From Geosiphon pyriformis uo1 (taxonomy: Eukaryota; Fungi; Glomeromycota): a stretch of 64,000 nucleotides of DNA. The position numbers and the translations under genes were made by a program. The stretch covers positions 124,001-188,000 of the forward strand of contig JAAOMT010000557.1 of NCBI GenBank assembly GCA_016748015.1, in the 5' to 3' direction. Shown here piece after piece: positions 7,174 through 55,113 of the stretch. Under the pieces are notes generated by a model. It worked only from the letters and a program-made list of their open reading frames with translations, made no database searches and had not been told where the DNA came from. The first letter of the stretch is position 1. The number at the start of each line of letters is the position of its first letter.

Positions 7174-7444
7174 TGTATTAAATTAATTTTAATTAAACAC
7201 AAAAATAAAATGTGAATTTTTACAATTAAAATAGAATTAAATCATAAAAATATATATATATATTTTTTAATAATTAAATAAATATAAAATAATTAAAAAA
7301 AAAAAAAACTTCTTTCTTTCGTTCATCTCAAATTCCCAAAAAGAGTCAAAAAGTTTTTTTGAAAAAAGTTTTTTCAACATTCAGTACGATAAAACCAAAC
7401 CATTTTTTGATTTTAAGACCATTGTTGGCCTTAGTATTGCTATC

Positions 7445-9235
7445 ATGAAGAAGGCTGCTGAAAAATCTGGTGCTGGTGGGAGTTTTAAGCCTGTTTTGCC
7501 AAGAAAGAAGAGGAAAAGTGTTGCTTTGGAGGAGGATATTAGCAGAAAAGGGGTGCCAACTGAAGTGCCAAATGGTCGTTTATGGAGTTTTGAGACTGGT
7601 AACACCACCAAGTCTAAGAACATTGATATAGAAAAAAAATGTCTTGTAGAAGAAACTAGCTTTGACTTTGGTAAAAATGGGACTATGGCTGATATGGATC
7701 ATAATCAGACATCTAAGGGGCCAAGTATGATAACTAAGAAAGCATTGGGCAAACCATTGGGGAAGATAGATTTTTCAGATCATGGTAATAATGATGATAT
7801 TCTTTTTGATGTCCTCTTAGAACTTCCCCTATCCTTGAAGAATTTAGTTTCTATTTCTGTTAGAAAATCTTTTGCTTTAGATATAGGCTTGGATAAAGTG
7901 GTTGGAAAGTCATCTCAAGAAAAGCTAATGGTAGTTAGGAAATTGTTTTCGAGAGTTAATGGTTTTGGAGGGGCCTCTACCTCCTCAAAATTTTCTGAAA
8001 TCATCTGCACTTTCTTTACTTCTGAATCTAGTTTGGCACAAGCCACAAAAAAGGCAAGAGTGGCAAATATTTTGGTAAACATTAATCTTAAGAAATCAAC
8101 TGGTCATTCAGATCAAGCTGTAATAGTTAAGAAAATTCCAGTTGGGACATCAACTGAGACTGTGCATGCTGTACTGTCTATGTTTGGCATAAATGAGTCG
8201 ATCAAAATGCAATTGGTAAGGCTGTGGCAAAAAGCAATAGTTGAATTTGGTGAGATTGACCAGGCTGATTTGGCTGCAGCTCGCTGGTCTATCTTGATTG
8301 AAAAAGATGCTGTTTGTGTGGCCAAGACTAATAATGACAAAGAATCATGGGATGCTAGGAATCATCACAGGGCTCTGCTTTACACTCTGCCAATGGGAAC
8401 AACTGCTCATGACATCTGGAATTTTGTTGGTTCTGTGGGTAGAAAAACCTGTATGATCGATCATCATCCTGTTATGTATGCTTGGGCCAGATGTGCCATT
8501 GTTTGCTTTAATTTAGCTGATTCCTTGGATGCTGTTATGGACACTACTTCAGTGTTAAGAGGTGTGAATCTGTGTTGGTCTTGTCTGAGTCTTTCTAAAT
8601 GTGTTAAGTGTGGGAATTTGGATCACACATCATTGGGCTGTTCTGTAAATAGGAATCTTTTCTCTGGTAGATCATCTCGCAGAATGCTTTCAGATGTAGA
8701 TAAAAGCAGACTGGCTGCCATCTATGCCAAACGTTCAGCTTTAGTCACTCAACCAGTTGCTTTTGGTGGTGCTTTGTGGGCTAGTGTTGTTGGTGGGTCT
8801 TCTTTCCCTCCTCTCTCTGGTCAGAGCATTTCTTCAAAAAATGGCTTCTTTTCAGAGATAAAGCCTACCCCACTGTTGTCTTTGGAAATGAATAATAGGT
8901 TTGCCACTCTTGAGCACAGTCTTGCCAGCCTCGCAGAGCATGTTGATAAGCTGGCTAAGAGGTTAGACACACCTGGGCCAATGGTTTCCCAGTTTAGTCT
9001 TAGATGTCAGCCATTAATAACTCCTTTATCACAGAATTAAGGAGCGGATATAGTAATGAGTGAGAGTTTGGGTGTGGCCACTAGTGGTGAGACTGTAGTA
9101 GGAGTGGTGGTTTTCAATCCCTCAATTGTTTTGAAAATGGAAGAAACATTGAAGAATCTTTTGGTTATAGTTATGAATTTTTCGGCTAAATTGGACAATG
9201 CTGGTCAGGTACCTGTTATTTGTACTTCTCAATGA
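7445..9235 (+). pseudogene. LINE-A ORF1 (RRM-like region, CCHC knuckle, coiled coil)
   Basis: 597 codons with one internal TAA at 9038. Knuckle CVKCGNLDHTSLGC. Ends TCT CAA TGA overlapping the ORF2 ATG. Confidence 0.85.
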
Positions 9236-12200
9236 CAGACCTGGTTTAGAAATTGGCTATGTGTAATGTTCAGGGCATGAACAATCAAGCAAAACAAGAG
9301 GACATTATATATTGACATATGGACATAAACAATTTGGTCTCAATTTTTACAAAAATGAAGTTAAAAAGAAAGATTCAACTATGAATTGCCAATAAATTCA
9401 GTGGCATTCATGTGTTTACTTCTGGTTTGGATTCAGGTTATCTAGGTTTGAGTGTTACAGTAGTCATGAACAATTCTTTAGTTAGGCATGTATATAAGGT
9501 TTTGGAAGTTCCTGGTTGGCTTATCTCTATTAAGTTGCTTTTTAAAAACAAACTTTCAGTTTCAATTTTGGGGCTTTATGCTGGTGCCTCATTGGCTGCT
9601 CAGTTTTCTCAGGCTGATGCCATCAACTCTTTAATTGCAAGGGCAGTTAACAAATCTTTTTTCGTCATTCTCAGTGATGACTTCAATGAAAACAGTTCTC
9701 ACAAATGTGTGAGTTTTAAGAAATGCTTTGATCTTGGTCTGGTTAACTCTCTAGTCGGAAGCCCAGCTGCAAGATTACCCACTTGGTCCAATTCTAGAAG
9801 TGTTATAAGAACAATTGATTACGTGTTTGTTTCTCCAAATTTAGTTAATACAATAGTACATTGCAATGTTTCAGATGCTGGTGAGCATTTTAACATGGAT
9901 CACCAAGCTGTTTCTGTGTCGATGGGTTTGGGTGGACTTCTGGATATATGACTAACTTCCCTTCACAAACAAGCAAACAAAGATCAGTAGAAGTTCGATT
10001 TCAAGAGTGCGGATGCTGATAAATAGAATAATTTTAAAGACACATCATTAGCCAATACAATATTATTCTCGAATAAATTTGTCTCTTCTGTGAAGGCTTC
10101 AGATCTGAATGCACTGTGGAATGTTATTCACAAAGTAATGACTCTTTCAGCTAAAAGAACTTTCAAGAAAAAGTGGTTCAAGAATTATGATGAGATTTTT
10201 ACTAAGAAGTCTTTTAGATTCCACAAGCTTGAACTTTTGGTGTCTAAGATTGTGAAGGTCTTTCGACTGTTTTTGCATGATAAGTTCACTTTTCTTCTTA
10301 ACAAATGGAGTGGTCTTGATGCTGTCAATGCATCTTTGGTAAATTTACTCTTTGTTTTGGATTCCCATTTCAATGTAATTTGATCAGCATTGGCTAAGAT
10401 TAAGAAGACTTACAGAGTCTCTAAACTGATGGAATCTGGTCGTGCTTTGAAATCTTAAATCAGATCAGCAATTGATAAGAGAATAGAAAGTTTTGAATCT
10501 AATAAAGATCATACTATCAGAAGTGTGCTGGAGTATCCTTTTTACAAGGTGGTTTTGGATCATTTGGTTGTTAATAATAAGCTAGTTCTTGAACCCAATT
10601 TGGTCAAGTCCAAGGTGGACATAATTATGGAAGGTTGGACTAGAAAATGTATGGTGGTCGATAACATCCCTAGTGATTAGTCTTATCAATATCTACCCTT
10701 AGAATATGTTTTTAATGAGGCCTTTTCTGGTGTGATGCATCCAATTGAGTTTGAAGAGTTATTGTGTGTGGTTTCAGATTTGCCTGACGGCAAAGCTGTT
10801 GGTCTCTCAGATATCTCCAATGAGCTATGGGGACATTGTGACAGATCAGTTTTGGATATGCTCTTGGTTTTTTTAAATCTTTGTTTATCTTGTGAGTCAG
10901 TGCCCAGTTCATGGAAAGAAGCTTGGGTTTCTATGATCCCCAAACCTTATAAATGAGAGAGAGTTCTTATGAATACTCATCCAATTGCTTTGATTGAAAC
11001 AGCTCGCAAAATTCTTTCCAAGATTCTCTTGAATAGGATTTTGCTGGCTTGTAGCTTTTATGATGTTCTACATGGAGACAATTTCTCAGTTTTGAAAGAT
11101 ACAATGATTCAATTCCCCATTTTTGCAGTTGAATCAGTGGTTGAAGATGCTCTAGAGAAGAACCGGGAACTCTGGCTTGTTCTACAAAACATGCGGAAAG
11201 CTTATGATTCGGTTGGCTGGGAGCATCTCAGAAAATGTTTGGTCAGGATTAAAATGTGTGACAAATTTATTCGGTTTTTTGGTGGCATTCACAATGATCA
11301 TGTCAACAGAGTCATGACTGATTTCGGGTTGACTGCTGGATACCAAATGCATGATAGTTTGGACCAAAGGGAGGTTTTTTCACCTCTTCTTTGGCACATA
11401 TTTTATGATCCTTTATTGTGCAAGGTCAAGAGGCAGAAGAGTGTGTGTGGGTATCAATTGAATTTGCATTTTGTTGTCAGGACTGGTCGCTTGGAATCTT
11501 AAGCTGGTTTGATGTCATTTTTTGCTGCTGGGGCATTTGTAGATGATACAATTTGGATTGGTAGCAGCCAAGCTGCTACTCAGCATATTCTCAACATTGC
11601 CAGTGAGTTTTTTCAGCTTAATGACATTGCAATTAACAATAACAAGACTGTGACTATTCCTGTGAATTGTAGAGTTGAGCATTCTTTTTTGCTGATCAGT
11701 GGTCAGCCTATTTTAATTGCTAAAAAAGGGGAGTCTCATCATTATCTGGGCATTTTCCTATCTACTGAGAGCTTATCAAAACCTAGCTTGGCTAAAGCTC
11801 ATGTGGATGTTTGGCTTTTTGCCAATCTTGTTTTGAGGAAGACTATTTCTGATAAACAGTTCTCTTATTTGGTGTCAGCAGTTCTTTTTCCAATTATTAG
11901 CTACAGAACTCAATTCAGTTTTGTTCCTGTCAGTATATGTAATAAGTAGGACACATTGTTATATAGAGGGTTGAAGTCCAAATCTGGTCTATCACAGGAT
12001 TTTCCCAACAATGCAATTCACCATCCCTCATTGTATAACTTGAAAACTTTTGAATAGGTTCAGGCTGAGAGCAAGTCAGTTTCTGTTGTTTGCTTCTCAA
12101 ATGCTGTTGGTATTTTGGGCCATTTCTTCATGTATCGGTCACATGACTTACAAATTTGTAGCTAGAGTCCTCACTATCCTTTGGTTTTTCCTTCTCATAT

Positions 12201-13937
12201 TAATATCAATCCTTCAAATAACTTTCTGGCTGGTGTGATCCATATTTTTTTGGTGTATGATTTGTTTTTGGAAGGTCTTTCGACCAATGCTTTTCGCTTT
12301 TGGGGTGGTACCCTTCTGTCTCTTGTTCTTGGTGGTCCTATTTATTTCAGGTGTGTTTTTTTACTTCAATGGTATGAGATTGCTTTTGTTGAACAGCTTC
12401 ACAATCAAGTTGGAGCTGTTTTTAATTGGAAAACTTTCAAATGGTGGAAAAGACTGGACCTATGGGGCCTGATTTTTTCTTGGTTTAAGCATTCAGTTGA
12501 TTTTCTTAATGGTGTCCTTTCTGCTTCTGTTTGTTTTTCTCCTCCTCTGGGTGTTAGTTCTTTGGGTGTACTTAAGTCTCAAGAGTTTGGTGTTATTTGT
12601 AACTGTTTGTTGGGTGTTGATATCGACCAGTTTGCTATATACACAGATGGCTCTCTTTGCAATCTAGAAACTTTTAACATGAAGGCTAGTATGACAGTTT
12701 TTTTTGAGAACATTAGTTTGGGTTTGGGTGTTGAGATTTCTGGTTTGGTGTCTTTTACTATGGCTAAGCTATAGGTTGTTGCGCTGGCTCTTGAATGTGT
12801 TTCTTTTTTTAGTTTAGTTAGCATTTTCACGGACAGTTAGTCAGCTCTCAATGCTTGTAAGTTGGAATTGGATTTATTGTATCTTGATTTCCGAAATTAT
12901 TGTTGGATCAAGCAGTGCCATATTGTGGGTGTCATTCATGAGAAAAATTTAAATGTCAGTTGGCACAAGGTGAAGGGTGATTTTGGTGTTTCAGGCAATA
13001 AGCATGCTAATGTTTTCACTAAGGCTGCTTTTTCCTTAGTTTGACATTTCCCCCAGTTCAACATCTCCCCCATTGGGTAAAAAAGTGTTATATTAAGGCT
13101 GGTAGTGGCACTATCTCGGCAAATATTAAACACTTTGTTTGTGATATTTTTCATTCAGTCCACTGCATGTGCTGGGAGGTGGGCTCTGGTTCAAGAGCAG
13201 TGGTATCTAATTTGCAAAATGATATTGATTGGTTTCAATCATCTTTTGTGTGGCATCCTGACTCCCATTTGGTAACTGGTTTCACTAGTAAATCTACTGC
13301 TGGTGCCCATATGTATTTTATAAAGGCGTTACATCATCATCTTCCTGTTGCTATTTACAAGTGCTTGTATAACAGACATTATCCTGGAGTAATATATTTA
13401 TTCTACAGTGATGTCGAGGTCTTTGATCATGTTTTTTGTTGTTTGTTTGATTTTGCTGCTCATGTGCAATTGCTAGATACTTTTGCAGCTGATTGGATAA
13501 AGCTTTCTGGTCTTCTACTTTTGTTTTCTTGTGTGTTGCAGCTGCTGTTGTCATATATATTTAACATAAATATATACATGGCTTTGTGCAAAGATTTTGT
13601 CTTCAATAGTTGGTTTCAAGAGTCTCTGTTAGTTTTCAAGGATTTTAAAATTGTGACTTGAACAATTGTAGATTTTTTGCATGGTTTTTGCCTTGCTTTC
13701 TGGGATAAGATTTGGTTGGCGCACACCAGACACCAGACATTTATGGAGAAAAATGGTCTGATCTCTTTAGATGGGTCTATTCCAGCTTTGATCACTGGGT
13801 TTTCTTTGATGCTTTCTGCTGGTGTGGTTAATTTGATGGGTGTTGTTGATGCTTTAGATGTTGGTTTTGAGTTACATAAACCTTTTGGTTTTTTTTCAGA
13901 TTTGAAAAACATAGTAGTGGTTCATTTAGGTGCTAAG
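9232..13937 (+). pseudogene. LINE-A ORF2: APE endonuclease, RT, RNase H, C-terminal Cys/His motif
   Basis: EN motifs CNVQGMN, DDFN, TIDYVF and MDHQ. RT motifs THPIALIETARK, NMRKAYDSV, QREVFSPLLW, AFVDDT and YLG. RNase H motifs IYTDGS, FTDS and WHKVKG..GVSGNKHA. C-terminal DHVFCC. Confidence 0.9.
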
Positions 13938-15735: not shown

Positions 15736-16386
15736 TGTTACGGTTTAAGAATTTAGCAAAAAAAATCATAAAAATAATACAAACTATTCAATCATAATAT
15801 AGCACAGTAATAATCTTAAAAAGGTAATGATTAACATAGTAGCAAACACCATCTCGCGATAGTGGCAAGCACCAGTTTACAATAGCAGCCAACACCAACT
15901 GGTGATAGCAGCAAGCACCAGGTTGAAATATCAAAAAGAAAGTATTTTCTCATAGAACTACAAACATGTATATANNNNNNNNNNNNNNNNNNNNTCAACT
16001 GAATCCCTTGGAAGAATAATCCTTGATCAAGATTATTCACGTTGTTACTAATTGATAAAAGCTTTATTGTGAGAATTAGAAAAGTGCTAAAGACCATTAA
16101 CATTCTGTGTTTCTAGATTAGAGAAACACATCAGGCAATTGCAAGGATAGCCTCAGAGAAGACCCCAGACAGTGGGTAGATTTCAGTTCAGCCTCTGAGA
16201 AGGAGTACATAAATACACACAACAATCAAGAATTAAAGAATAACTTACATCGCAACAGTAAAAAAAAAGCCTTCAGTATAACAGTGACATTATCACACAA
16301 ATAGAACTGAGGAACTCACGAAAAACTGATTGCAATTAAAGCGGAATATCAGCAATTAAATATAACAAGAAAACCATCCTGTAACA
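15736..16386 (+). repeat. E1 5' LTR (contains an N-gap; 4 x 23-bp U3 repeat at 15836-15921; TATA-like at ~15968)
   Basis: Matches 19506-19605 and 21494-21707. Confidence 0.9.
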
Positions 16387-16405
16387 TTTGGTGAGCCCTA
16401 CGAGG
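16387..16405 (+). promoter_or_regulatory. E1 primer-binding site TT-TGGTGAGCCCTACGAGG
   Basis: TGG lies 2 nt after the LTR end and is complementary to a tRNA ...CCA 3' end. tRNA identity not determined. Confidence 0.8.
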
Positions 16406-16468
16406 AAAGAAAATTAAAAAGGAAATAATAATTAGCAATAATTCATTGCTAAAAAGGAAAAGACAAAA

Positions 16469-18742
16469 GTGGCGACAAAAACCCCTAATCTTACTGTTCT
16501 TGAATTCTGCCGTGCTATTTACACACAAAATCAAAGTGATCTTGGATTACCAGAAGGGTGTTGTCCAGCAGAATCTGCCCTCACTTATTATATCAACGCC
16601 AAAATAAATTATCATATAGGAAAGGAAGAAGAACCACACAACGCAAAACTTGGATTGTATAGAGAATTATCACAATACACTACAAAAGAAGTAGCAGTAA
16701 TAGCCGCAACTATTGTCAAAATCCATTGACAAATTGAGCAATACGCCAACGAAAATTTTCCAATATCCACAGGAAACATTAAGGAACGCGCCAACAAAAC
16801 CAAAGAAAATTTAGAAACTAATCAGGAAAGTAACCAGCAAAAACTAGGAACACCAGCTCAAACACCAAAGAAAACTGGCACTCAATCAATAAAGAAACAA
16901 CGTATTTATTCACCAGAAGATAAATCATACCATTTTTCACCAGAAAATAAGATACAAATTCCATTAGGAGCTGCATCATCATCAACATCAACTCCACAAA
17001 CGCCAAGAACTTCTAGTTATATTGATAAAATTAAACAACGTAACTGGGGAGACATACCAATTACAGGAGGATATTCATCACTATTCCAAAACCCTCTTTT
17101 TCAGCCAAAATTTAGAACAGAGTTTGAAAACCGTGAAGAAGAGTCTGAATCGGAATCTGAAAAAGAGACCAGCGAAAAAACAATCACAAGACCAGTCACT
17201 GGAACAAGCAGCCAGTCCAGAAACCAAGAAACTCGTGATCAAGAGAAAGAACCGGATATAAGGGAAGCCACCTTTAGGAACACTCAAGGAAATATCATCC
17301 CACCTTCTCTTAGACCAATAAACCCACCAGCAGAAAATGGCAACGAAATGACCACATCATACATTACAAGACTAACAGATTTCTCAGGAGAGGAAGAAGA
17401 AACGGATGTGCACACATGGCTCAGAGAAGCACAAAAAGCCATCCAGGCAAATAACTGGAATGACCAAAGAGCAATTCAAACATTATCTTTCTTCCTGAAA
17501 GGCACAGCCGACTCGTGGTATCAAAGCCTAGAAACAAAACCCACGAGCTTCGCCGAATTTAAAAATGCACTCCTGGAGTATTTTAGCGACCCAAACGCCG
17601 TAATCCAACTACAGAACAAATTCAATACTATCAAGCAAAATACTGGTAAAACTGTTACCCAATACCTTGCTCGATTCAATCGAATTCGCCATCAGATTGA
17701 AGTGATTGAACAAGGATACTACACTGATCCTCAGGTTTTAAATCAGTTTATTAGAGGATTAAAAAGCAGCATTTTAGGAAGAGTACGCCCTGCCCACCCT
17801 AATTCCTTACCAGAAGCCGTTACACTTGCCAGAGCCCTTGAATTGGCTGAGAAAGAAGTTAACCATAGTCAAATGGTTAACATGGTAATGGAGGAAAATA
17901 AGACAGAAACATTAGAGAAAAGAGTAACGCGATTAGGGGAGGAACTCTCTAAGAAAATAGAAAGTTACCTCATCCTGGATCCGAGAAAAAATACATACCA
18001 ACCACCCCAAAGACGCAGCCAGGAAGTCAGCGACAGTCGAAATAATCACCCGTCATGCCAGGAATTCAAAACAGAAACACGCACCTGCCATTTTTGCAAA
18101 CGCGTAGGACATTTGATTAGTTAATGTCAAATGCAAATGATGCAGGAAGCACACAAAAATAATTACTATGTGCCACCCCAAATGCCCAGAAACCAGTACA
18201 TGCCAATACCATGCCAATATTCCACCACGTATCAAAATCAAGGAGCTTACCAGCAACAGCCCATGATAGCCAACCCAAATTGGCGTCTCGAGGCCTGAAA
18301 TCAGCCCATGTGGAACCAGAATGCGTTGGTCCAGAGGAATCCAAACCGCGCCGGAACCAATCAGCAAACCAATCCAAACTACCAAAATTATCAACAAACT
18401 TACCTTAATATACCGGAAAACCTGATCATTGGAAACAATGACGGTAGAAACATAAACAGAACCAAGAATTCCTCCAAATTGAGCCAGACAATACCACCAG
18501 CAGTTGCCACCGAAGATAGCAGCCTCGCAGCTATTTTTCCTTTTGAATTAGAGGAAAACGAGGCTATGTTCAGTGGAGCAGCATTGGACAAAAAATGCCC
18601 AATCACTGCTATGTATACAGAAGCCACTGTAAACAATACCCCAATCAAACTTATCTTAGACAGCGGATCCGCTGGAAGCATCGTAACGCTTCAACTAGTA
18701 AACCAACTGGGTTTCAAAGTTGATCGTGCTGCGACGTCCCAA
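16469..18742 (+). pseudogene. E1 Gag (N-terminal extension, capsid, CCHC knuckle) and aspartic protease in one frame
   Basis: Capsid DFSGEEE..WL..A..AIQANNW, QFIRGLK; knuckle CHFCKRVGHLIS*C; protease LILDSGS. The ORF pieces at 16469, 17348 and 18308 share one frame. Confidence 0.88.
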
Positions 18743-18762: not shown

Positions 18763-19413
18763 CCAGGAATAATGGTTCAAATGGCGTCATGATCAAGCCT
18801 CGCGAAAAAAGGAATAAGCGTTCAAGGAGGAGTAATTGACTCCGGATACACTGGAAATTTGATGGTTTTGCTACAGAACAATTCAGAAAAGCCTTATACC
18901 ATTGAATCTAAGGAAAAGATTGCACAAGCAATTTTCCTACCATTGGTAAAAATTGGGAAATTCGTGCCAGTGGAAAATCGTGAGGAATTGTCACAAACAA
19001 CGAAAGGAACTTTTGGTTTCGGATCAATAGGAAAAGGAATTGAAGCGAATTTTGCTGAAACAATAGAGGAAAAAGGCGAAGTAATTAAAAATGAGCGGTC
19101 CATCACACTCCTACCATATGAAAAATCAGAAATAAGAATAAAAAGGACAATTAAAGAAAAAGACCTAATAATTGAGCCCTATTCAGAAACTTGCCAACAG
19201 TTTCTTATAGGACTTACTAACCTTTTTATTCCAGCTGATAAAGCTCAATGGATAAAAATTCCTATCGCAAACACCACAGAAGAACCCGTCTACATTCTGG
19301 AAGATACCATTATTGGATACCTCGGAACGGAGCTAGAAAACGTGTCAACACCACAAGAAATTCTAAATTTCCCAGAAATCGCCCTCTACTGTGAACTCAC
19401 TTCAACAAATTAA
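18763..19413 (+). pseudogene. E1 dUTPase C-terminal half plus downstream dUTPase-like beta domain
   Basis: dUTPase motifs 2-5 (S*SSLA, GVIDSGYTG, KIAQAIF, KGTFGFGSIG), then KIPIANTTEEPVYILEDTIIGYL. Confidence 0.88.
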
Positions 19414-19505: not shown

Positions 19506-19625
19506 TGTTACAGTTTAAGAATTTAGCAAAAAGAATCATAAAAATAATACAAACTATTCAATCATAATATAGCACAGTAATAATCTTAGAAAGGTAATGA
19601 TTAACNNNNNNNNNNNNNNNNNNNN

Positions 19626-21473
19626 ACAATGACGGTAGAAACATAAACAGAACCAAGAATTCCTCCAAATTGAGCCAGACAATACCACCAGCAGTTGCCA
19701 CCGAAGATAGCAGCCTCGCAGCTATTTTTCCTTTTGAATTAGAGGAAAACGAGGCTATGTTCAGTGGAGCAGCATTGGACAAAAAATGCCCAATCACTGC
19801 TATGTATACAGAAGCCACTGTAAACAATACCCCAATCAAACTTATCTTAGACAGCGGATCCGCTGGAAGCATCGTAACGCTTCAACTAGTAAACCAACTG
19901 GGTTTCAAAGTTGATTGTGCTGCGACGTTCCAAATCATAACAGCCGATGGAAGTACAAAGCTGCCTTATGGCGAAATCGACTCATTCCCTTTCGAAATTA
20001 ACGGCATAGTAATACCTACAAAAGTATTAGTAATGGATGCTACACAATATCAAGCGTTAGTAGGGAATGACTGGCTAACAAAAGCCAACGCCACCCTAGA
20101 CTGGACCACCCAAGAGCTTCTAATTAATTATAATGGCCACCAGGCCAAAATTCCAGCCACTTGTGGCCACTTCCAAAAACCCAGCGCCAACTAAAGACCT
20201 ACCTTCGAATTTGAGAAAAATCCAGCACTACCAGCCATCGAAACCTATCAGCTCTCTTGGGCTGATGACCAAAGAACAGGACTACCAGCCGTACCAACGT
20301 GGACCAGCGAAGAAAGATCTGAATGGAACCAGGTAAGTTCACGAAGAAACCACCAGCGACGCAGACCAAAGCTAGAATGCTCGGTTTGCAAGAAGAAACT
20401 CTCGTCTATGACTGCGTGCAGTGCACCAGACGAAGACCCAAGAAACCCCACCCACTACTATTGTAACCGTTGTAACAAAGAAAAATATGGTTACTCAGAA
20501 AGACATGGAAAATGGGACGAAGAACCGTGCCTCGCTTGTGGAGAACCGTTACCAAGAGGGTGCGACTGGAATGACTTACCAGGTAGAGGAGGAACGTGTG
20601 ACGCAACTTGCCAATACACAATCTTCATCTGTGACTGGGTAAGAGGAGGAACGCCGTTCGAAGCAGCATTCAACAGAGCGTTAAAAAGACTACAGCACTA
20701 CCCACACGATGAGGACGAGTTGTACAACACCGCACAAGCCAAAGTAAGAGGAGGAACCGCCGAAGAAATACGACGTTGGAAAGAGTCAGCCGAAGTAGCC
20801 GACGAAGTTGCCAGCTACAACATGTTCGATCCAGTGGACGAATTCCAGGACTACTACCAATAACTATGCCCCACTCGACAAGAGCAAGAACAATACCTCG
20901 CCCAAATCAACACTTACCTCTGCGAAAACTGTCTCATCCCGTGCCAAAGTCAGTGCTGTGAAGAGTGTCAAGATGAAAGGAACTTAGAAAGAAAAATGGA
21001 AATTGAGAATCAGCAGTCTCAAAATCAATCAATAAATCAACAAGACTCACCTGATGGTCCCGAGTCAGAAAAATTTGTAGCCTATACCGACCTAGAACAG
21101 GTGACCGACATCCGATACTTCGACAACGGGCACTTAGGAATAATACCCGAAAAAGCCCATCCAACCGACACCGGATTCGATCTACGTTATCCGGAAGACC
21201 AATCCACAACATTACCACCCAGAAGCATCACCAAAATCGACCTAAAAATAGCGGTTGAAATTCCGCCAGGAATAATGGTTCAAATGGCGTCATGATCAAG
21301 CCTCGCGAAAAAAGGAATAAGCGTTCAAGGAGGAGTAATTGACTCCGGATACACTGGAAATTTGATGGTTTTGCTACAGAACAATTCAGAAAAGCCTTAT
21401 ACCATTGAATCTAAGGAAAAGATTGCACAAGCAATTTTCCTACCATTGGTAAAAATTGGGAAATTCGTGCCAG
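19626..21473 (+). pseudogene. E1 protease, Cys-rich domain and dUTPase N-terminal part (contig that belongs in the 18743-18762 gap)
   Basis: Its ends duplicate 18435-18742 and 18763-18970. Motifs LDSGS, ALVGNDWL, CSVC/YYCNRC/CLAC/CDATC/CENC..CCEEC and HPTDTGFDL. Confidence 0.85.
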
Positions 21474-24400
21474 NNNNNNNNNNNNNNNNNNNNTGGGTAG
21501 ATTTCAGTTCAGCCTCTGAGAAGGAGTACATAAACACACACAACAATCAAGAATTAAAGAATAACTTACATCGCAACAGTAAAAAGAAAGCCTTCAGTGT
21601 AACAGTGACATTATCACACAAATAGAACTGAGGAACTCACGAAAGACTGATTGCAATTAAAGTGGAATATCAGCAATTAAATATAACAAGAAAACCATCC
21701 CATAACAACGTGTGAAAAATGGGACTATATGATTAGAAAGAGGTTGAAGTCTAAGGCCAGTTTGTCTAGAAACTTTCTTAATGAGGCAGTACACCATCTC
21801 TCTTTATATAATTTAAAGCCTTTTGAACAAGTCCAAACAGAAACAAAAGTCTTGTCAGTTTTACAGTTTACTAATGATAATGGGTTAATGAGTCGACTAT
21901 TTGGACATAAGTTAATAGACTTACAAGTTTTGGGCTGAGTACTTTGGAACCCTTTTCAATTTCTTGTTAAGTTGATGGTCAATTTGATAAACAATTTTCT
22001 GGCTGGTGTTACAAAAATTTTTTTGCATAATGAGATCTTTTTGGTTAATGGCTTGCCCAATGCTTTTCATTTCAAGTATGGTTTTTCTGTTTTAGATATT
22101 TTGGGCCAGGCACTGTATCTCTGGATTTGCAAATTACTAAAACGTTTTGGAATTATTTTTGCAGACCAGTTATTGAACAGTCATGGAAAATGTTTTAATT
22201 GGAAGAATTTTTACCATTAAAAATGATTGGATTCCAAAGGTCCAGTTCTTTTATGATTCATGTTGGTTTCAGATTTTGTCAAGAGTGGTGGTTTGGTTAA
22301 AAGTTTTTCTCCTGCTTTTGGGTCTTCTTTCAAGTTAGATGTTTCTAATATGGACTACTTTGGTTTCATCTATTCTAGTTTGAAGAACGCTTTTTTGCCA
22401 GTAATCTCAGTTTATACTGATGGTTCTGTTAAAGACTTTGATACTTCTGGCACTGTTAGAGGGGCTGCTGCCTATTTTTCTGATCTGAGTTTGCATATAG
22501 GTGTGGAAGTTCATAGTTTGTTATCAACTACCCTAACTAAAATGCAGACTGTTGTACTGGCTCTCAAGTGCATTCTGGCTTCCTCGAATGTTACAGTTTT
22601 TTCTGACAGTCAGGCCTTCTTGGATGTTTGTCAGGTAGAGTTAAGATTGGTGGCTCCCAATTTTCACAACAGGTGCTGGATAAAGTGCCATCATATTAGC
22701 AATTTAGTCAAATATAAAAACATTTCTGTTACTTGAACAAAGATGAAGGGTTACTCTGGTGTATTAGGCAATGAGCATGCTAATTGGTTGGCTGATCTAG
22801 CCATGTCATCAGGGCTTGTTCTTCCAGCAAATATCAGAGAAAAAATTTTGATGGCAGATGATAAGTTGATTTTTGGCAATATACACCACTTTGTTAGAAA
22901 AACAAATAATACTATTAAATGCTTTCAATAGAAATTTGGACCTGGTTCAAGCATTGTAGATTTTTTATGGGTCAGAAACATAAATTGGGTTTGTACTGTC
23001 TTGGTTTGGCACTCTGATTCTCACATGTCTGCGGAATATACAAACAGGGCCACCACTGGTTTGTGCACATATTTGATAAAAGCTTTACATAAGAGACTGC
23101 CTGTGACTGTAAAAAAATGCTTATATAATTATAGTTATCCTAGTGTATTATGTGTATATTGTAGGAAGGTGGATTTTTTAGATCATAGTTTTGTGTGTTG
23201 CTTGGACTTTTTGATGTGTTAGAGCTTGTTAAGTAAGTATTCTTCTCTTTAGAAGTCTTTTACTGAGGCGACCTTGTTGTCGTTTGCAGTTCTGTAGTCT
23301 TTGGCTTCTTCTGTTTCTGATGTTGGTCTCTACACAATTTTGTGTAAGAGTCTTGTGTTTAAAGATTGGTTGGTAGATACTAAAGCATCTTTTGTGAATA
23401 CTAAGCTTGTGATGTCTTATCTAGTTGAATTTGTTTGAGGTATGGCCACTGGTCATAAAGAACAAATCTGGATGCCTAACTCAAAACTTCGAACTAAAAT
23501 AGAGCATCATAGATTACTATGTGTGGATGGGTCTTTTTATGATATTATTTGGGATTTTCTTGCTAAAATTTCAGGTGGTATTGCTCGGTTGTTGGGAATT
23601 AAGAGAAGTTATGCCACCAATTTTGGCCTGAGTATTGGTCATTTGTTTTTTATTGGTGCTGCTAACAGAGTCACAGTAAATATAGTTGCATAGTGTAGTC
23701 TTGATTGGCTGAGTGGCTAGTCACATGTAGCAAAAACATGAATCACATTTAATTTAGAACTTTAGATAGTTGTATTGTATTAGATAGTAATTGGGCTTTA
23801 CTCATTAAACTAATAAAAAAAAAATAATATTCAATTTTATTATAATTATAAATAAAAAAAAATTTTCTGTTTAGGATAATAACAATAAAAATATATAAAT
23901 TAATCTTGATTTAAAATAATTTTTGACTGTGTTTTTAATTATATTAAATTTTTTTTTTATTTGCTTAATGAGTACAGTCCAAAAACAATCTAGTACTATA
24001 CATCAAAAAAACAATCTAAACTAGATGTTAATTATGCATTTTCTACATGTGACTAGTCACTCAAACCAATCAAAAACACACTACACTGAAATAAGAAAAG
24101 GTGGGAATAACCCCAAACCACAAATTTTTTCAATAACACCATTCAGATTTCTAGAATCAAAAATAAACTTACTAAGAAATAATCTAGTAGATTCAACACT
24201 ACTCCTAATCTCAGCACCTGACATCCGTCACAAAGCTATAACATGCTCAACAGTGTCTTTACTCAAGAAAAAAGGTTTGACAGCCTGCATATCATCATAA
24301 CCATGTCACTAAAGTCAACTTTAGATCTAAGACAAGCAATGTTTTTAGACACACCAACCAAAAAATTGGCAAAATTGTTAGAAGCATATTTCATAAAAAG

Positions 24401-26242: not shown

Positions 26243-26256
26243 TTATTCCCTCCTTT

Positions 26257-26886: not shown

Positions 26887-26940
26887 TTTTCTGTATTTTT
26901 CTGTCATGTCAACCATGCCTTTATAAATTCTTTCTGTTAA

Positions 26941-28320: not shown

Positions 28321-28383
28321 CTTTTGTTATATTTTTTGTTGGTATTGTTCTGGTTTTGTTATATTTTTGGGTTTGAGATGTTT

Positions 28384-31300: not shown

Positions 31301-34300
31301 CAACCAGGAATGTCATTCCATATTTCTTCATCGAGCAATTGTTCACTGCAAGCGAGACATGATTTATTGTTCCACTTGCCTTGTTGTTTTGGGTAGCCAT
31401 AGCATTCTCTATGGCAAGGTTTGCAATAATAGTGGGTTCGCATCCAGTAGTTCTCATCTGGTACAATCCAGGTTTTCATGAAAAAAAGTTTCTTCTCACA
31501 GTCTTTGCACTTGAGTGGTATGTATGGTGGTTGTGGTAGTGGCTTATAAATGGAATATGAACAAGTCCAGCCACTAGTAATGTCTTTTGTTGATTCGATT
31601 TTCTCCAGTATGTTGTCTTTTTTTTTTTTTCCTTTTCCTTTTTCTTCCCAACTTAGTGTAGATAGCAACTCATTTTGGTTGTCATCAATCCAAGCACCAA
31701 TAGTGGTTTCCCAGATATGTTCTTCTTTTTGCTTTCCTTTTCTATGGTTGTCTTCGTCCCAGGCAAGTATGGGCAGCAGTTCATTGTGATCGACATCAGC
31801 CCACAAAACCTGATATGCTTCTCATGTTGATTTCTTTGTTTTCTTCTTAAATTCGATTAATGGCTGCAAGTTGGTTGGTTTAAAGTGACCACATACTGCT
31901 GATGCCTCAGTATGTTGACCATTTTGGCTCAGTTGGAGCTTTTGCATCATCCAATTGAGTATGGTATTTGTTTTGGATAGCCAATCATTTCCAACAAGAG
32001 CTTGGTACTGAGTGGCTTCTATTACAAGGACTTTGATGGGTATCATGATGCCATTAATTTTGATAGGTAGGTTGTCTATTTCGCCTATTGGGGTTTTGGT
32101 TACTCCATCAGCTGTAATGATTCTTGCACTGGCAGCTCAGTTAATTCAGTGACCTAATTGATCCATGAGTTGCTTTGTTATAATGCTGCCAGCTAATCCA
32201 CTATCTAAGATCAGTTTGATGGCATGGCCATTGATTTTGGTATTTGTATACATGGCGGTGATTGGCTTCTTTTCAAGAACTGCTCTACTAAACAATAGAA
32301 CTTTGATCATTTCTTCCAAGTTGAAGAGAAAGATGGCCATAAGCAATTCATTGTTGGTGACAGTTGTTGATGGAATGTTGTTGGTAAATGCTTGTTGTTG
32401 GTTGGATCCCAAATTGTTGATAATGACGTCTTCTTGGATAACCAGAAGACTTAAATAGTTCTGGAAATTTGGGTTTTGGGTGGCACCAGTACTCGAATTC
32501 CGAGAACATGATCCTGATGGTGAGTTGGAGGAACTGGGGATCAATTGGTAGACAACCATTGCTGATCTCCAGTTTTGTTGTGTTATTCTTGGTCTTTGGA
32601 TTTCGTCTTGAAGTAAGTTTTGGGGTGGTGTTTGAATGGTTTGAGGTTGATAGATTACTTGTGGCTGTGGTTGATATATTGCTGGTGGTTGTGGTTGATA
32701 AACTGGGGTCTGATATACTGGTGCTTAATAAATTGGCTGCTGCATCGTTGACAGATAAGTGTTTGGGTATTGATCTTGATTTTGATATTGATTCTGGGTT
32801 TGGAATTGGGGATTGGGGTTTTGATGTTGATTTCCCAATTGTCAGTTATAAGCATTGCAGTTGGCTTTTATGTGACCTTGTTTACCACAGTTGTGGCAAA
32901 CACACATTTCCTGCTGCCATGGTTGATTAATTGACAATAATGGACGTGCTTGATTTTGGAAACAATTGGTGTTTCTCTGATTACTGCATTTTTGGGGAGA
33001 TTGATAAATGGACTGATGGTTGTTAGTTAAGTATCCCTCAATTTTCTGATTAATGGTATCACTGATTTGTTTCAATTTGGAATCCAAATCAAATGATTCA
33101 TTCATTACTAAATTTACAGCTTGAACATGGTTGGTTTTTAGCTCAGCTGATTCGAAATCTCTGGCATGTGTGACTGTGGCTTAAAGGTTGGCTGGGTGTA
33201 ATGGGCATACGTGTTGCAAAATACTACTGCACAGGCCACGAATAAACTGGTTGAAGATCTGGAGTTCTGTGAAATACACAGTGTTGATGGCTTAGATTTG
33301 GCGTAGAACTCTATAAAAGTGTTCTAGGTATGTTGTGACTGCTTCAGTATTATTCTGTTTGATTGTAGTAAAAGTATTGGTTAGACAATTAATACTGTTA
33401 TTGTTGCTAAAATATTCCAGAAAGGCAGTTTTGAATTGTTGAAATATTTGTGGTCTGGTGGTTAAACTCTGGTACCAAGAATTGGTGGTTTCTTTGAGAA
33501 AGTATGGTATTGCCTATAGGACTCTGGCATCATCCCAATTGTTTACTATGATGGCCTTGAAGATGTCATTGATCCATGCTTAAGCGTTATCTTCTTCACA
33601 GGTAAAGTTTTCTAACTTTGTGATAGGTGTGTAGACCATTTGGTTTACGTTTAGTTATTGTAGTGGCTGTTGAAGTGGTTGTTGTTGCACGGGTTGTTGG
33701 GGTGGTAATTGAAGTGGCTGCTGTATGGGTTTGGCTATTGGATTAATTGGTGGTTGATCGATGACGATTACTGAAGATAAGTTTTGTTGATTTATTAAAT
33801 CGGAATTCTGATTGTTTTGATTTTGCTAAGTTTTAATATTCAGAGTTTCAATTTCCAGATTTTCTATGTTTGGATTTTGTGGAGTTTGAACGTTCGGGGT
33901 TCCGAATTTCGAGTTTTTTGAGATTAGGTTTTGGTAAGTGAATTCTTAATCTTCACTTTCTTCCTCTTCTTTCTTTGATAATTCTCATGGAATAGTGGCT
34001 CCGAAATCTGATTGGGGTAGTGGTGATTGAATTCCTGATGGCATTGGAGATCATGATTTAAATCCTTCAAAATACACGCCATATGGTCCTAGTAAGTTTT
34101 CTTTCCATTGTTTGCTTTGGAACTGAAATCTTCCAAAATTTTGATGTCATATTTGATGTGGACACATTTGCTGATAAAATATTAATGGTGCTTCCAAATG
34201 TGTAGTAATATAATGGAGTGGTTGGTGATTCTACTCTGTGTTTCTTCCAACTAGATAACTGTATTCCTTTTGGTATTGCTGCTGGTGTTTGTATTCTTCC

Positions 34301-34624
34301 TTTACTTTTGTCTGCGTAGGTAATGAAAAATTGTTGTTGCATGTATTTTTCAATAATTTGATTAATTTCCCTGATGATTGGGGCGAAACTGTGATTTCTT
34401 GGTAAGCTAGTGTGTTGAAATAATTCTGTATAGAAATTTTTTCTTGCTGACTTAATATTAACAATTTCTCCTAAACAGTTTGTGATTTTATCATTGACAT
34501 AATAGTTAAAGGCTGATTTGGCTGAGTAGTGATTACTGTTTAATTCTAATTGTTGGCTGTATTGTTGAAACAAAGATTTTGCAAATCCTAAGTGGTTGGC
34601 TCCTATAATTTCTGATTCTACTAC
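28384..34624 (-). pseudogene. E2 Gag-PR-ZnF-dUTPase-pseudo-dUTPase-RT-RNase H polyprotein
   Basis: Motifs CHNCGKQGHIKANC, LDSG, DTGFDL / GIIDAGY / RFGSTG, RFCVDYRKLN, MPFGLTNAPATF, YLDN, TDASGQALGAVL and ELEHLAI. Pieces from 33105 to 28386 share one frame. Confidence 0.9.
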
Positions 34625-46100: not shown

Positions 46101-47269
46101 GGTTTATTAACCAAGCTCTAATACCATAAATTGGCAGTATTTTTGAGAAAGTAGGGAATGGCTTATATTGCTTGGGCATCATTCCATCCATTGGCTGCGA
46201 TGGCTTTTTCTACATCATTCAGCCATACTTGAGTGTCATCCTCTTTGTCAGTAAAGTTGTCAAGTTTTGCGATTGGTGCATAGGCCATTGGACCTAAGTT
46301 AGGTGGTTGTGGTGGCTGTTGAAGCAGTTGTTGTTGTACTGATTGTTGGGGTGATAGTTGAAGTAGCTGTTGTATGGGTTCGACTATGGGATTAATTGGC
46401 AGTTGATCAATGACAATTACCAGAGGTAAGTTTTGCTGATTAATTAATTTGGGGTTTGAGTTGTTCTGTCTTTGATGATTCAAAGTTTTGATTTCCGAAT
46501 TTTCTAGATTTAGATTTTGCTGAGTTTGAAAATTTGGGGTTTCAACTTCCGGGTTTTCAGTGATTGGGTGCTGGTAAGTGAATTCTTAATTCTTTGATTC
46601 TTCTTCCTCTTTTTCTGATTCTGCTGCTTCCCACAGATCAGAGATTCCGAAATCTGGTAGAGGTGGTAGTGATCGAAGTCCTGATGAGGTTGATAATCGT
46701 GAATTAAATTCTTCAAAGTATTTGCCATATGGTCTTAATAATTCTGTTTTCCTTTGTCTACTTTGGAATGGGAATCGTCCAAATACTGATGTTGCAGTTG
46801 ATGAGAACACATCTGTTGATAATATGTTGATGGTGCTTCCAGGTGTATAGTAGTAGGATGGGTTGCTTGGAAATTCAATTCTGTTTTTTTTCCAAGTAGG
46901 TGGCTGTATTTTTCTGGGTGTTACTGCTGGTGTTTGTAGTTTTCTCTTGCCTTTATTAGCATATGTAATTGGATATCTTTGTTGAGTGTGGTGTTCAATT
47001 TTTTTGTTGATCTCAGTGATGATGGATGTGAAATTATAATTTGTTGGCAGATTGGTGTTTTGAATTAACTCTCTATAGAAAGTTTCTCTTGCTGATTCAG
47101 TATTCACTGGTGTTCCTAATAAAGAAGAAATTTTTTCATTGACATAGAAATTGAAGACTGATTCGATGGATATATGATTGTGGTTTAATCCCAAGTATTG
47201 ACAATAGTGTTGAAATAAGAATTTTGCAAATTCCAAATGGTTTGCTCCTATATTTTCTGATTCTGCCAC
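40184..47269 (-). pseudogene. E3 Gag-PR-ZnF-dUTPase-RT-RNase H polyprotein, interrupted by the solo LTR
   Basis: Motifs RSSLA, GGIIDVGY, RGIQGFGSMG, MPFGLTN and YLDN. Short direct-repeat (GCTGG) deletion in RNase H near 40445. Confidence 0.88.
43064..43962 (+). repeat. Solo LTR (E2/E3-related) nested in the E3 Cys-rich domain
   Basis: TGTTAC...GTAACA ends, TSD ACGT / ATGT. CCAAT at ~43109, 40-bp repeats at 43141-43230, TATA at ~43270. Confidence 0.92.
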
Positions 47270-51017: not shown

Positions 51018-54000
51018 TGTACTGACAAGTCTTGTCATATGTTCCTCCTCTGCTAGACACATCATTCCAAAATCTTTTATTAGGCAGGATCTTACCACAT
51101 GCGAGGCATAGCATGTTGTCTCACTTGTCTTGTCATTTTAGTCATCCAAATCTTTCCAGTACATAAGGTCTGCAGTATTATTTGGTGGCAGTGGGCCATT
51201 CTTTGTTGTCCTTGATACATACACCCATTGTAGATAGCTTCTTTTTACAATCAACACATATTAATTTTAGAGGTTGGTAAAATAAATTTTTTTGGTCTGA
51301 GGTTACGTATCTTAATAATAACAATTGGGGTTCTTTTTCGGCTCTGCTTTTTTCTTTTTTTTCTCAGGTTAGTGGTGGGGATAGTTCAGTTTAATAATTG
51401 TCCACTCATAAAACCTAATAGATCTCAATGGTTGGTGATAGTGGTGTGTCTTCGAATTCAATTAGGGATTTCTTAGTATGTTGGATTTTAAAGTGTCTAC
51501 ATGTAGCTGGAATTTGGACATGCTGTTCATTAAATATAAGTTAAAGTTCTTGGGTGTTTTAGTTGAGCATAGTATTGGCTTTTGAAAACCAATTATTTTC
51601 TACCAGAGCTTGATATTGAGTAGCTTTTATGATAAATAGCTTGGTAGAGATCTGGATTCCATTAATTTTAAAGAGGAAGTTGTCAATTTCTCCTATTGGG
51701 GTTTTTGTGTTTTCATTTACTATAATGATCTGGATGGTAGCAGTACAGTCTACTCAGCAACTTAGTTGGTCCATAAGCTGCTTTTTAATTATGCTACCAG
51801 CTGATCTGCTATCCAGGATTAATTTAATGTCTATTCCTCCAACTTTGGCATTAGTGTATAGGGCCATTATTGGTTTATCCTGATTGATAGTTGTTCCACT
51901 AAAAAGCCTATAAGTGTTCAAATTATTGATGTTAAAAGAAAATATGGTGGCTAGAGTAGTGTCTTTGGTAATAGTGACTGGTGGGATATTGCTTTTTGTT
52001 TGCTTGAAAGGTTGGGAGATTTGTTTTACATCCTTCTCTTCTATAGGTGTAGATTTATCAAAATCCTGGTCTTCCATAAGACTGAAATAGGAAGCTTGAT
52101 TTGGGTATCTGGTTGGTGCTGGTCGAGATTATACAGGACTGTGAGAAATTGGTTGAGATGATCTACTGTTGGTTTGTGCCTAATTGTTGTTGGAATTCTT
52201 TCATCTCTGATTATAGTCTATAGTTCAAGATTTAAGCTAATTATAAGAAGGAGTTTGATAATAAGGGATTGCTTGTGTTATTGATAGTGGTTGATAATAA
52301 TTTTGGGACAGTAATTGAGTGTACAGAATTTGTTGTGCATACTGGGGGGAGTGGATTTTGAGGGATAGAATATTGGAATACCATGTTTTGCTAATATCTT
52401 GGTTGCTAGTATTGGTTTCCTTGATTTTGGTCCATTATTTTTTTTCTGCAGTTATGAGCAATGTGTTCAGATTTCTGGCAGTAGTAACAGTTGTGAAGAT
52501 CAGATCTCCAAGATTGTTGCTATTGCTGACAGTTCTGTTGTTGTGGATATTTGCTGTTGTTGTTATTTTTTTTCCATTGTAGTGATTAGTAAGTTTCTTT
52601 GGTTCCAGCTAAAAATCCCTTAATTTTCTAAGTTAATTTCTTATTTAATTGAGTTATCTTTGTGTCAATGTCAGAGGTTCCATTAATGGCTAAGTTAACA
52701 GCTTGGATATAATTTACTTTTTGTTTTGCGGACTCAAAATCACGAGTAAAAGTGACTGTTTCTTGTAGGTTTGCCGGATGGCAAGATCATACAGATCTTA
52801 AAAGGCTGCTTCTTAGTTCTTTAATGAATTGATTAAGGACTTGTGTGGTGGTATAATAATTCTGCTCAATGGCTAAGATTTGTCAAAAAACCTGATTGAA
52901 TCTTCCAAGATAAGTAGTTACTGCTTTATGGTTATTTTGTTTTATTATACTGAATTGATTTTGCAATTAAATGAGTGTATTAGGATTATAGAAGTATTGC
53001 AAAAAGGCGAGTTTAAACTCTGTAAAGAAGGTAGGCTTTTCTGCAAGACCCTAATACCATGAATTGGCAGTTCTGGTCAGAAAGAATAGCAGTGCCTGAA
53101 TTGTGTAGTCATTATTCCATCCATTAGTAGTAATTGCTTTTTCGGCATCCACAATCCAAGAATATGCATTATCTTTTTCACCAGAGAATTTTTCCAATTT
53201 AGCAATATCTTGGTAGGCCATAATCTGGTTAATGGGTGAGGTGTTACTAGTTACATTTAAGGGGATTGATGTCTGCATATTTGTGTGTTCTTTAGGTGCT
53301 AATGTTGGTTGTTTCTTTTTGTTGCTGGAACCAATAGGTTGTAAGATAGCTGTTCTTTTCATCAGAGGAGATGCTGATTCTGCTGGGTTTTGTGCTGATG
53401 GCTGTTCCCAAGTTGACATGTTTCCTTCTGTTTGACTGGCTGTTGGAATAAGATTTCCAAACAGTGATCCATATTCTCCTAGTGATTTGGTCCAATTGTG
53501 TTGGTTTCAAGAGTGTGAATTTTCAGAAGTTTGTGGTGTTTCTGACTGGGTTTCTAGAGGTAAATTGAATACACTTCTACTTTGGGGTGTCTGATGATAT
53601 GATGGAGTTGTTGGGGAGAGGAACCTTGGTTTTTTGTTGACTGTAAACTTGTCTTGAACAGTTGTAGGATTATTGGATCTGTCCTTGTATTTCTCCAGAT
53701 TGGATTCTACTAGTTGTTATACTTGAGGGAATTATTTTGTTATGTAGTGTTTAATGTCCATATCAACTATGCATAGAATTTTAGTAATTGCTTAAGTAGT
53801 AGTAGTTGTTAAGTACTCTAGTAAGCTTTAATGTATTTGTTCTTCAAGTTTTTCTGTATCAGTTGCACAGCCTAACAAGCAGTTGATTTTTGCATTGATA
53901 TAGTTGCAAAAATTACTTTCTGTAATAGTAGTTTCTGTTGGTATTCCTATATCTTTTCGAAAGTATTAAAATAGTGCTCTTCCATACAAGGAGTAGTCCT

Positions 54001-55113
54001 TTTCTATTGTTTCAATAGTCGTCACTTTTGTGTATCTCTGGGGTGCTCTGTCTCTGTGGATTTATAATTTCACAGAGAGCACCAAATATTACAGGTAAAC
54101 TTAGTGGGGTATGGTAGTAACATTTGGTGTTCTAATTTAGTATTCTATGGTTGTATGTTTTTTACAGAGTTGATGTTTATCAGTCTCTGAAGGTCTTTTC
54201 TGGATGTGAATTTATTCATTGAGTTCTTTGGTTATAAGACACAGAGTTTATCTTTCATCGATTGCAATATTTTCTGCAAATGTGAGTTTTCTTCTTCTCA
54301 CTAATGAGTATAGTTGTTAGGATTCAGCATTGTTTTTTTGTTCTTCTGGTAAGCTACCAAGATAATGTTAATATCCAAAACTTAGAAAGAGCCTCTCTCT
54401 TTTACCAAGCTATCACAAAGTCTATTTCAAGACAGTCAATTTTTTTATGTTGCTGTTTCAAAAAAAAAAAGAAAAAAAAAAGAAGAAAAAAAAAAAATAA
54501 AGAAAAAAAAAAGAAAAAAAAAGAATTAATTCCTGTTAATCACCATGATCAAGAATAATTGGTCCAAATTGTTAAAGATTTAAGGCATTTATGCTAATGG
54601 CATCTGTTCCAGAACAAAAGTAGGAAATACTGATTTTAATTTCAATTAAAATTCATAAGATTGGAGAACATGAATTTGTAAATTGGATTTTATGTTTTTT
54701 TTTTGATAATTATTGTATTTTGGATTATGGATATCTGATAAGTAGAATACAAAGTAAAATTGATTTCTAACTAACTTGTCTTTTTAACTTCTACAACTAC
54801 TTGCTTTTATACATTCTTTTGGTTTTACAGGATTGCTTTTAATTGCTTTACTATTGCTAGCTATTGCTTGTTATTGCTTATGTTTGTTCTATGTTACTTC
54901 GAATTGTATCACATTTTTTTTGTCACGTTTTTTTGTTATGTTTTCTCACAGCTTTTTGGTTTTTCTACTCAGGTAATAATAATTAGTGAGCTATTTTCAA
55001 TAAAATTGCTAAATTTCTTGAATTATTTAAAAATATTATGGTCAAAATATTAGCCAGTTCAAATAATACTGCTTCCTTAATTATTTTTCTCTTTAATATT
55101 ATTCTTAATTACA
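51018..55113 (-). mobile_element. E4: truncated LTR element of a third subfamily (5' LTR ~54087-55113, PBS, Gag, PR, start of Cys-rich domain)
   Basis: PBS TTTGGTGCTCTCTGTGAA (54069-54086); motifs YINAKIN, MAYQDIAKLEKFSG, LILDSRS and CVDC. Outer LTR boundary is uncertain. Confidence 0.82.

Follow-up and report, generated by a model that had tools for sequence, protein, structure and literature searches.

A conserved GTG ahead of the capsid in Ty3/Gypsy retrotransposons of Geosiphon pyriformis points to probable long and short forms of Gag-Pol

Four copies (E1 to E4) of one LTR retrotransposon group lie in the 64-kb stretch of Geosiphon pyriformis DNA that was analysed (hereinafter, the window), and the coding frame that is under selection in these elements begins well ahead of the capsid, at a valine codon, GTG. 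In three well-sampled lineages, the first ancestral methionine is the start of the capsid, 244 to 327 codons past this valine. Judging from the sequences, GUG probably serves as a start codon for a minority, long form of Gag-Pol, with leaky scanning to the capsid AUG that would produce the majority, short form. An earlier reading of this DNA from its letters (hereinafter, the sequence-only reading) had suggested a minor GUG-initiated long Gag and a major AUG-initiated short Gag; the valine at the site and the purifying selection on the codons that follow support this suggestion, initiation being the step that we infer. The two forms are retained here with the products amended: since gag and pol occupy a single frame in E2, these would be Gag-Pol polyproteins.

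The elements and their relatives

The features of the four copies are as follows.

15736..16386, plus strand: 5' LTR of E1 (TGTTAC...TAACA), 97% identical to both pieces of the 3' LTR
15975-15994: 20-N scaffold gap within the 5' LTR of E1
15995..17336, plus strand: ATG-free stretch of E1, comprising the 3' part of the LTR, the spacer with the primer-binding site (PBS) and the N-terminal extension
16389..16406, plus strand: PBS-like motif of E1, starting with TGG
16463..16474, plus strand: proposed GUG start of E1 (16469-16471) in the context ACAAAA-GTG-GCG, with A at -3, G at +4 and Ala as the second residue
16469..16798, plus strand: N-terminal domain of about 110 aa, a predicted five-helix bundle, broken in E1 by a stop at 16727
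16799..17347, plus strand: low-complexity linker, 56-62% S/T/Q/P/E/N, in frame, with no ancestral Met in the E1 lineage
17337..17339, plus strand: sole ATG before the capsid start of E1, not in frame; most family members have ACG instead
17348..17842, plus strand: capsid ATG and Ty3-type capsid domain of E1 (PF19259, E 7e-15; PF03732, E 1e-14)
19506-19605 and 21494-21707: 3' LTR of E1, in two pieces
33637..34624, minus strand: E2, from a decayed GTA (34624) to the capsid ATG (33639), with one 1-nt insertion and ten ATGs
46286..47269, minus strand: E3, from GTG (47269) to the capsid ATG (46288), 327 codons, with five out-of-frame ATGs
53219..54025, minus strand: E4, from GTG (54025) to the capsid ATG (53221), 268 codons, with nine ATGs; the most decayed copy (CpG o/e 0.08)

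The hallmarks of Ty3/Gypsy elements, namely, paired TG...CA LTRs, a PBS after the 5' LTR and a purine tract before the 3' LTR, are present in E1, E2 and E3, and E1 is flanked on both sides by the same four bases, ACGT. Both capsid profile matches in E1 exceed the curated Pfam cut-offs. The distance from the start of the PBS-like motif to the GTG is 80 nt in E1 and 59-60 nt in E2 to E4. The domains of E2 follow, in one frame, the order gag, PR, dUTPase, RT, RH, IN, which is the Ty3/Gypsy arrangement; the same order is found in E3, spread across two frames, and E1 as assembled contains gag, PR and dUTPase only, with RT and integrase not seen. The single frame of gag and pol in E2 implies that the Gag:Pol ratio is not set by a frameshift. 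The Gag-to-integrase region of E2 (26244-34683, minus strand) includes 25 stops in the coding frame compared to 131 and 128 in the other two, as well as a long insert around the dUTPase. E1 is scaffolded with four 20-N gaps between 15975 and 21493 and contains duplicated pieces (18435-18742 again at 19626-19933, 99% identity; 18763-18970 again at 21266-21473, 100%); these gaps and duplications probably reflect out-of-order assembly.

The comparisons involve three lineages that are represented in the window and a fourth, more distant one from outside it (P0305, P0308-P0426) that was reached via a weak profile match. Family DNA was seen through contigs aligned to E1 and E3, and family proteins through annotated gene models, which describe decayed copies with unreliable exon choices. 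The N-terminal region of E1 has 69 relatives (up to 93% identity), 120 matches of 163 were listed for that of E3, and 120 of 330 for the fourth lineage, all of these being gene models of G. pyriformis. A profile search yielded 167 matches; all 10 that were identified, weak ones included, are G. pyriformis models, so that none of these 10 comes from outside the species, which is not proof of absence elsewhere. A search of metagenome and viral contigs for related loci found none. The fourth lineage shows the same design as the elements in the window, with a Lys|Val-Ala start followed by 244 codons without Met and the first Met at the capsid.

Decay across the family is strongly biased towards C>T and G>A changes, at about 20-34% of CpG sites and 14-26% of the G positions of Met codons; deamination therefore seems not to be confined to CpG. 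A second repeat family, probably LINE-like, is represented in the window by several copies in a state of decay (7215-13451, 48290-51056 and 58531-62746), one of which has an endonuclease/exonuclease/phosphatase match.

The conserved GTG and the domain that it opens

The contexts and coordinates of the site that the sequence-only reading gave for E1 to E4 were all correct, with CCAAAA-GTG-GCA in E3, ACAAAA-GTG-ACG in E4 and CCAAAT-GTA-GTA in E2; the capsid ATG follows in frame in E1, E3 and E4, and with a 1-nt shift in E2. That reading took GTG to be ancestral under G>A pressure, and the family bears this out. Among the 208 scorable models (of 307) from the lineages of the window, the residue at the site is Val in 185, Met in 15, Leu in 6 and another residue in 2, and among the 108 scorable models of the fourth lineage (12 of the 120 were unmatched), it is Val in 98, Met in 7, Leu in 2 and Ile in one. 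The family residue is therefore Val and not the Met that an ancestral ATG would have left (283 of 316 scorable models, four lineages), with the proviso that Val in a gene model is not proof of GTG in each copy. The 22:1 ratio of Met to Ile indicates that the underlying codon is GTG and not another Val codon, given that this is the outcome expected of G>A change in GTG. The share of Met at the site, 7%, compares with 7-9% for G>A decay at comparable codon positions (A|G contexts); annotation favours copies that have gained an ATG, so that any bias in this figure is upwards. In a quick tree with most forks open, the Met rows are dispersed, 12 such rows requiring 11 changes, compared to a mean of 11.7 after shuffling. 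With 6 of 31, the E2 lineage has the largest share of Met. Contigs aligned to E3 show no change at the GTG that reaches 35% of the depth.

The surroundings of the codon are conserved as well. The first base of the preceding codon is A in 289 of 299 models; position 2 is conserved as Ala together with its decay products. The work in PMC5487733 identifies A at -3 and G at +4 as the main context determinants of near-cognate starts in fungi, and in the account given in PMC5666671, GUG ranks second to CUG among these starts, well below AUG.

One leader motif is joined to the valine in all three reading frames (groups of 66, 13 and 11 models), and in-frame stops are found 10-22 codons upstream of the GTG; hence nothing upstream of the valine is held in frame. 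In the alignment of E2 with E3, the 300 nt upstream of the GTG contain 13 gaps and the 330 nt downstream of it none. An upstream in-frame start was considered as a candidate and ruled out by the three frames of the leader.

Purifying selection between the GTG and the capsid ATG, which the proposal of a long form entails, was found. For E2 and E3, the only pair for which dN/dS is usable, all others being saturated, the ratio is 0.19 in the N-terminal domain, 0.47 and 0.28 in two parts of the linker and 0.17 in the capsid, and the excess of third-position changes is significant in the N-terminal domain (p 0.003) and not significant in the linker. Thus, the N-terminal domain is under purifying selection. 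The domains of E1, E3 and E4 all begin at the site valine and share 24-29% identity. The AlphaFold2 model of the E3 copy, built from a 48-row alignment, consists of five helices with a mean pLDDT of 85. The domain has no match above the cut-off in Pfam, and no match was found among PDB sequences, with Foldseek (PDB and viral structures), with VIA-align or in two Atlas look-ups; in the comparison with known helical folds, matrix included, the best structural Z score was 7.0, within the range of unrelated helical bundles. At the RNA level, no consistent hairpin was detected below the GTG (-2.3 to -11.0 kcal/mol), and the leader and the extension fold like shuffled sequences (z -0.68 for the leader).

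The ATG-free stretch and the capsid methionine

In E1, which is less decayed than the other copies, no ATG occurs in any plus-strand frame from 15995 to 17336, as had been noticed in the sequence-only reading together with the remark that many would be expected; dinucleotide shuffles give an expectation of 18.0±3.1, and none of 2000 was as low as the observed zero. The corresponding gap between plus-strand ATGs (15966-17337, 1371 nt) is the longest in the window, the next longest being 421 nt. ATG is the most depleted of the 64 trimers in this stretch; TpG has an o/e of 1.00, and GTG, CTG and TTG are all present, so that the deficit does not stem from a general loss of TG. The observed and shuffled counts are 0 vs 6.7 in the LTR part and 1 vs 10.2 in the coding part; past the capsid start, ATG occurs as often as expected (23 vs 23.4). 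The description of this stretch as a 1.3-kb AUG-free leader holds with respect to AUG but not to the leader, 879 of the 1342 nt being coding and the remainder LTR (about 390 nt) and spacer (80 nt). Position 15995 is the edge of the scaffold gap; loose contig ends from two runs carry an ATG about 15 nt before it, which implies that the start of the ATG-free stretch is roughly natural. The ATG at 17337 had been taken to be out of frame and possibly a decayed ACG; it is out of frame, and C at 17338 (that is, ACG) accounts for 59% of the aligned contig depth in run X1.

Of the 22 ATA sites between the GTG and the capsid ATG of E1, none corresponds to ATG in the models of the family (at most 1 of 75), and therefore, the ATGs of E1 were not simply lost by G>A change; this check covers the GTG-to-capsid interval, and the LTR part and spacer hold 14 further ATA sites. 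At the NAY|G junctions of E1, C is found five times and T once, and the single T corresponds to ACG in the family. Under synonymous shuffling, a deficit of out-of-frame ATGs is seen in E1 only (p 0.05), with none found in E3 or E4.

Counted copy by copy against shuffled controls, ATG is clearly depleted in E1 and E3 (5 vs 13.3 in E3), but not in E2 (10 vs 10.9) or E4 (9 vs 10.6), for which rate tests yield p values of 0.07 and 0.36, respectively. E2 and E4 are old copies, several ATGs of which derive from codons for Thr, Ala or Arg; in E3, none of the 19 NAC|G junctions survives, which implies that decay can supply ATGs in old copies. Four out-of-frame ATGs are common to E2 and E3, and run X1 contigs aligned to E3 show no reversion of 35% or more at its five ATGs in the 40 of 45 rows shown; at least one ATG of E3 may therefore be ancestral. 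In a test for the CpG signature, the values for the ATGs of E3 are 21-34%, compared to 14-26% at true Met codons, and the two classes are not separable. Of these five ATGs of E3, four begin frames of 7-25 codons and the fifth a frame of 72. In the E4 lineage, an in-frame Met may be ancestral at codon 222 of E4 (53360-53362, minus strand), 47 codons upstream of the capsid Met; five models of this lineage have Met in three, Ile in two and Thr in none.

Six related LTRs in the window (25314-26242, 34686-35597, 37173-38045, 47332-48171, 43060-43962 and 57437-58235) form two pairs and two that are apparently solo. They have widely shared ATGs in the 5' half, and in the last 500 or so alignment columns, ATGs mostly alternate with ACG, ACA, ACC or ACT; five of the six contain a TATA-like motif 248-283 nt from the 3' end.

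An ATG at the capsid start had been listed for all four copies (17348, 33639, 46288 and 53221), and each of these was confirmed. Among the gene models, the capsid Met is present in 42 of 50, and in all four lineages it lies at the same distance from the capsid motif; around this fixed residue, the preceding amino acid (E/K, P or I) and the length of the linker vary among lineages. Above it, no ancestral Met is found in 293 columns of the E1 lineage, 327 of the E3 lineage and 244 of the fourth, with the exception of two columns of the E1 lineage in which Thr and Met are mixed, as fits the decay of ACG (CpG). Below it, 9-10 Met occur in about 739 columns, and the contrast with the Met-free span has a p value of about 0.001. 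To judge by the alignments, a start codon that is reached by scanning would look like this fixed methionine.

Proposed initiation at GUG, its alternatives and known systems

Under the proposed mechanism, ribosomes would scan from a presumed cap in the LTR across the AUG-free leader, and a fraction of them would be captured by GUG in the AAA-GUG-G context. The remaining ribosomes would scan 730-980 nt further and start at the capsid AUG. The long product would then consist of the 110-aa helical domain and a flexible linker ahead of the capsid, and the short product would be an ordinary, capsid-first Gag-Pol. Such an arrangement would probably serve to keep the added domain scarce relative to capsid and in constant proportion to it, perhaps as a minor component of the particle involved in targeting or regulation, although this role is a guess.

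Several alternatives can be considered. GUG could be the only functional start, in which case all Gag-Pol would be long and the capsid Met would be an internal residue or a protease site. Such genes exist, DAP5 being a case described in PMC5666671; the GUG context in the Geosiphon elements is near ideal and conserved, and the capsid AUG of the E2/E3 lineage mostly follows a Pro codon (43 of 60), so that its context, with C at -3, is weak. However, exclusive use of GUG leaves without explanation both the avoidance of ATG over the 879 nt past the GTG, ending exactly at the capsid Met, and the fixation of that Met in four lineages while its neighbours and the linker length vary, so that we consider this alternative unlikely.

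Production of the short form from a second RNA that begins inside the extension, with GUG used on the full-length RNA, seems quite improbable: it would tolerate the out-of-frame ATGs in the N-terminal domain of E2 and E3, but it does not require the avoidance of ATG over the LTR part and the N-terminal domain that is seen in E1. This alternative would mirror the yeast element Ty1, in which full-length Gag starts at AUG. The Ty1 precedent for a second RNA is p22, a short Gag translated from internal AUGs on the separate Ty1i RNA (PMC5408680); Ty1 belongs to the Ty1/Copia group, and its use of a separate RNA differs from the single-RNA reading that we favour for the Geosiphon elements.

The sequence-only reading had itself raised a splicing alternative, in which AAAAG|TG is an acceptor: joined to an LTR donor whose last base is A, it would yield an AUG, with the long form encoded by spliced RNA and the short one by unspliced RNA. 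The AUG of env in Drosophila gypsy is reportedly made by splicing, which a literature search did not confirm. The AG is present at the site in E1, E3 and E4, 6 of 208 gene models (with Leu at the site) appear to be spliced there, and depletion of ATG would be expected under this scheme too. Nevertheless, the site is poor in T (3-17% in the 30 nt above it, compared to 27-53% at the ends of seven antisense introns of the same family, which we used as the local standard for intron ends) and has no branch-like motif nearby; eight upstream or LTR stretches contain no A|GTA[AT]G donor and have no weaker donor in common; AAG would have to serve as the acceptor in most lineages despite YAG sites just upstream; and the gene models conflict on both donor and acceptor. 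With the T-poor site and no strong donor, splicing is disfavoured, and we regard it as hardly probable.

The antisense introns come from two contigs, one each in runs X2 and X3, that align to E1 over 15736-18740 on the minus strand with seven joints, the ends of which are mostly those of GT...AG introns. These contigs represent an antisense transcript, spliced several times, that spans gag and the LTR; its source is a copy of the family with less decay. Joined in the letters of E1, the exons contain no long ORF, the longest being 104 codons. In two RNA-like runs, the only long contig is antisense and skips the GTG, and no sense-strand contig over the GTG was found, which has no bearing on expression.

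The remaining alternative, chance or decay of an ordinary ATG-started gag that lost its ATGs by G>A change, or an artefact of an assembly gap, draws on the frequency of ATG>ATA change (14-26% of models at true Met codons) and on the gaps and duplicated pieces in E1, but is largely refuted and very improbable, given that decay, which runs towards A and T, offers no route from ATG to a GTG in about 90% of copies of four lineages, that none of the 22 ATA sites of E1 is ATG in the family and that the scaffold gap lies outside the counted stretch.

The proposed initiation at GUG with leaky scanning to the capsid AUG has parallels of different closeness. The sequence-only reading drew an analogy with the glyco-Gag of MLV, a membrane glycoprotein that reportedly starts at a non-AUG codon (CUG) upstream of gag and in the same frame. 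The analogy holds for the proposed upstream, non-AUG, in-frame start and fails for the membrane product, the signal-anchor of glyco-Gag being absent from the Geosiphon extensions: in a search for a membrane segment in four of these, no 19-residue hydropathy value exceeded 1.37. The lack of a membrane anchor makes the VP2/VP3 pair of AAV, PEG10 and RTBV closer analogies than glyco-Gag. In AAV, the minor, N-extended VP2 (ACG start) and the major VP3 (next AUG) are produced from one mRNA, as described in PMC11353222; AAV is a DNA virus with no relation in sequence or fold to the Geosiphon extension, for which we infer the two isoforms from sequence. PEG10, a mammalian gene derived from a Ty3/Gypsy element, has a Gag-like frame with an upstream non-AUG start and an AUG start that give products of two sizes (PMC2800197). 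It is a domesticated host gene in which CUG is the major start and the extension is 34 aa long, whereas the Geosiphon family is a multi-copy transposon with GUG and an extension of 244-327 codons that includes a predicted folded domain. In RTBV (rice tungro bacilliform virus, Caulimoviridae), about 10% of ribosomes initiate at the non-AUG start of ORF I, and the rest scan about 900 nt without an internal AUG to the polyprotein of ORF III, which includes the coat protein and RT, according to PMC5902531. RTBV resembles the Geosiphon family in being a reverse-transcribing element and in the leaky scanning that is proposed for the latter; in contrast, its ORF I encodes a separate protein behind a shunt structure, whereas the Geosiphon extension is fused in frame to the capsid and the leader folds like shuffled sequence.

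Viruses and one domesticated Gypsy gene thus already provide examples of non-AUG starts combined with leaky scanning. A literature search that left most subscription journals outside its reach found no non-AUG start of gag in an autonomous LTR retrotransposon, PEG10 being the only close case. The chances are evenly balanced that the Geosiphon elements embody a clade-wide GUG/AUG switch in autonomous LTR retrotransposons, which would place an undescribed helical domain on a fixed minority of Gag-Pol as a minor capsid isoform, akin to VP2 of AAV, would be tunable by the start-codon stringency of the host and would have persisted while at least four lineages diverged. If this is the case, retrotransposons have a new way to set protein ratios that is tied to host start-codon stringency. 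The feature itself, a GTG-opened frame ahead of the capsid, is real and conserved over the four lineages. Hundreds of gene models turn out to carry a 110-aa domain that is predicted to fold and resembles nothing known; these models begin at the wrong place because annotation requires an ATG. LTR elements comprise 41.2% of the G. pyriformis genome, as reported in PMC11952901, and with this share, the proposed mechanism may have served a large expansion.
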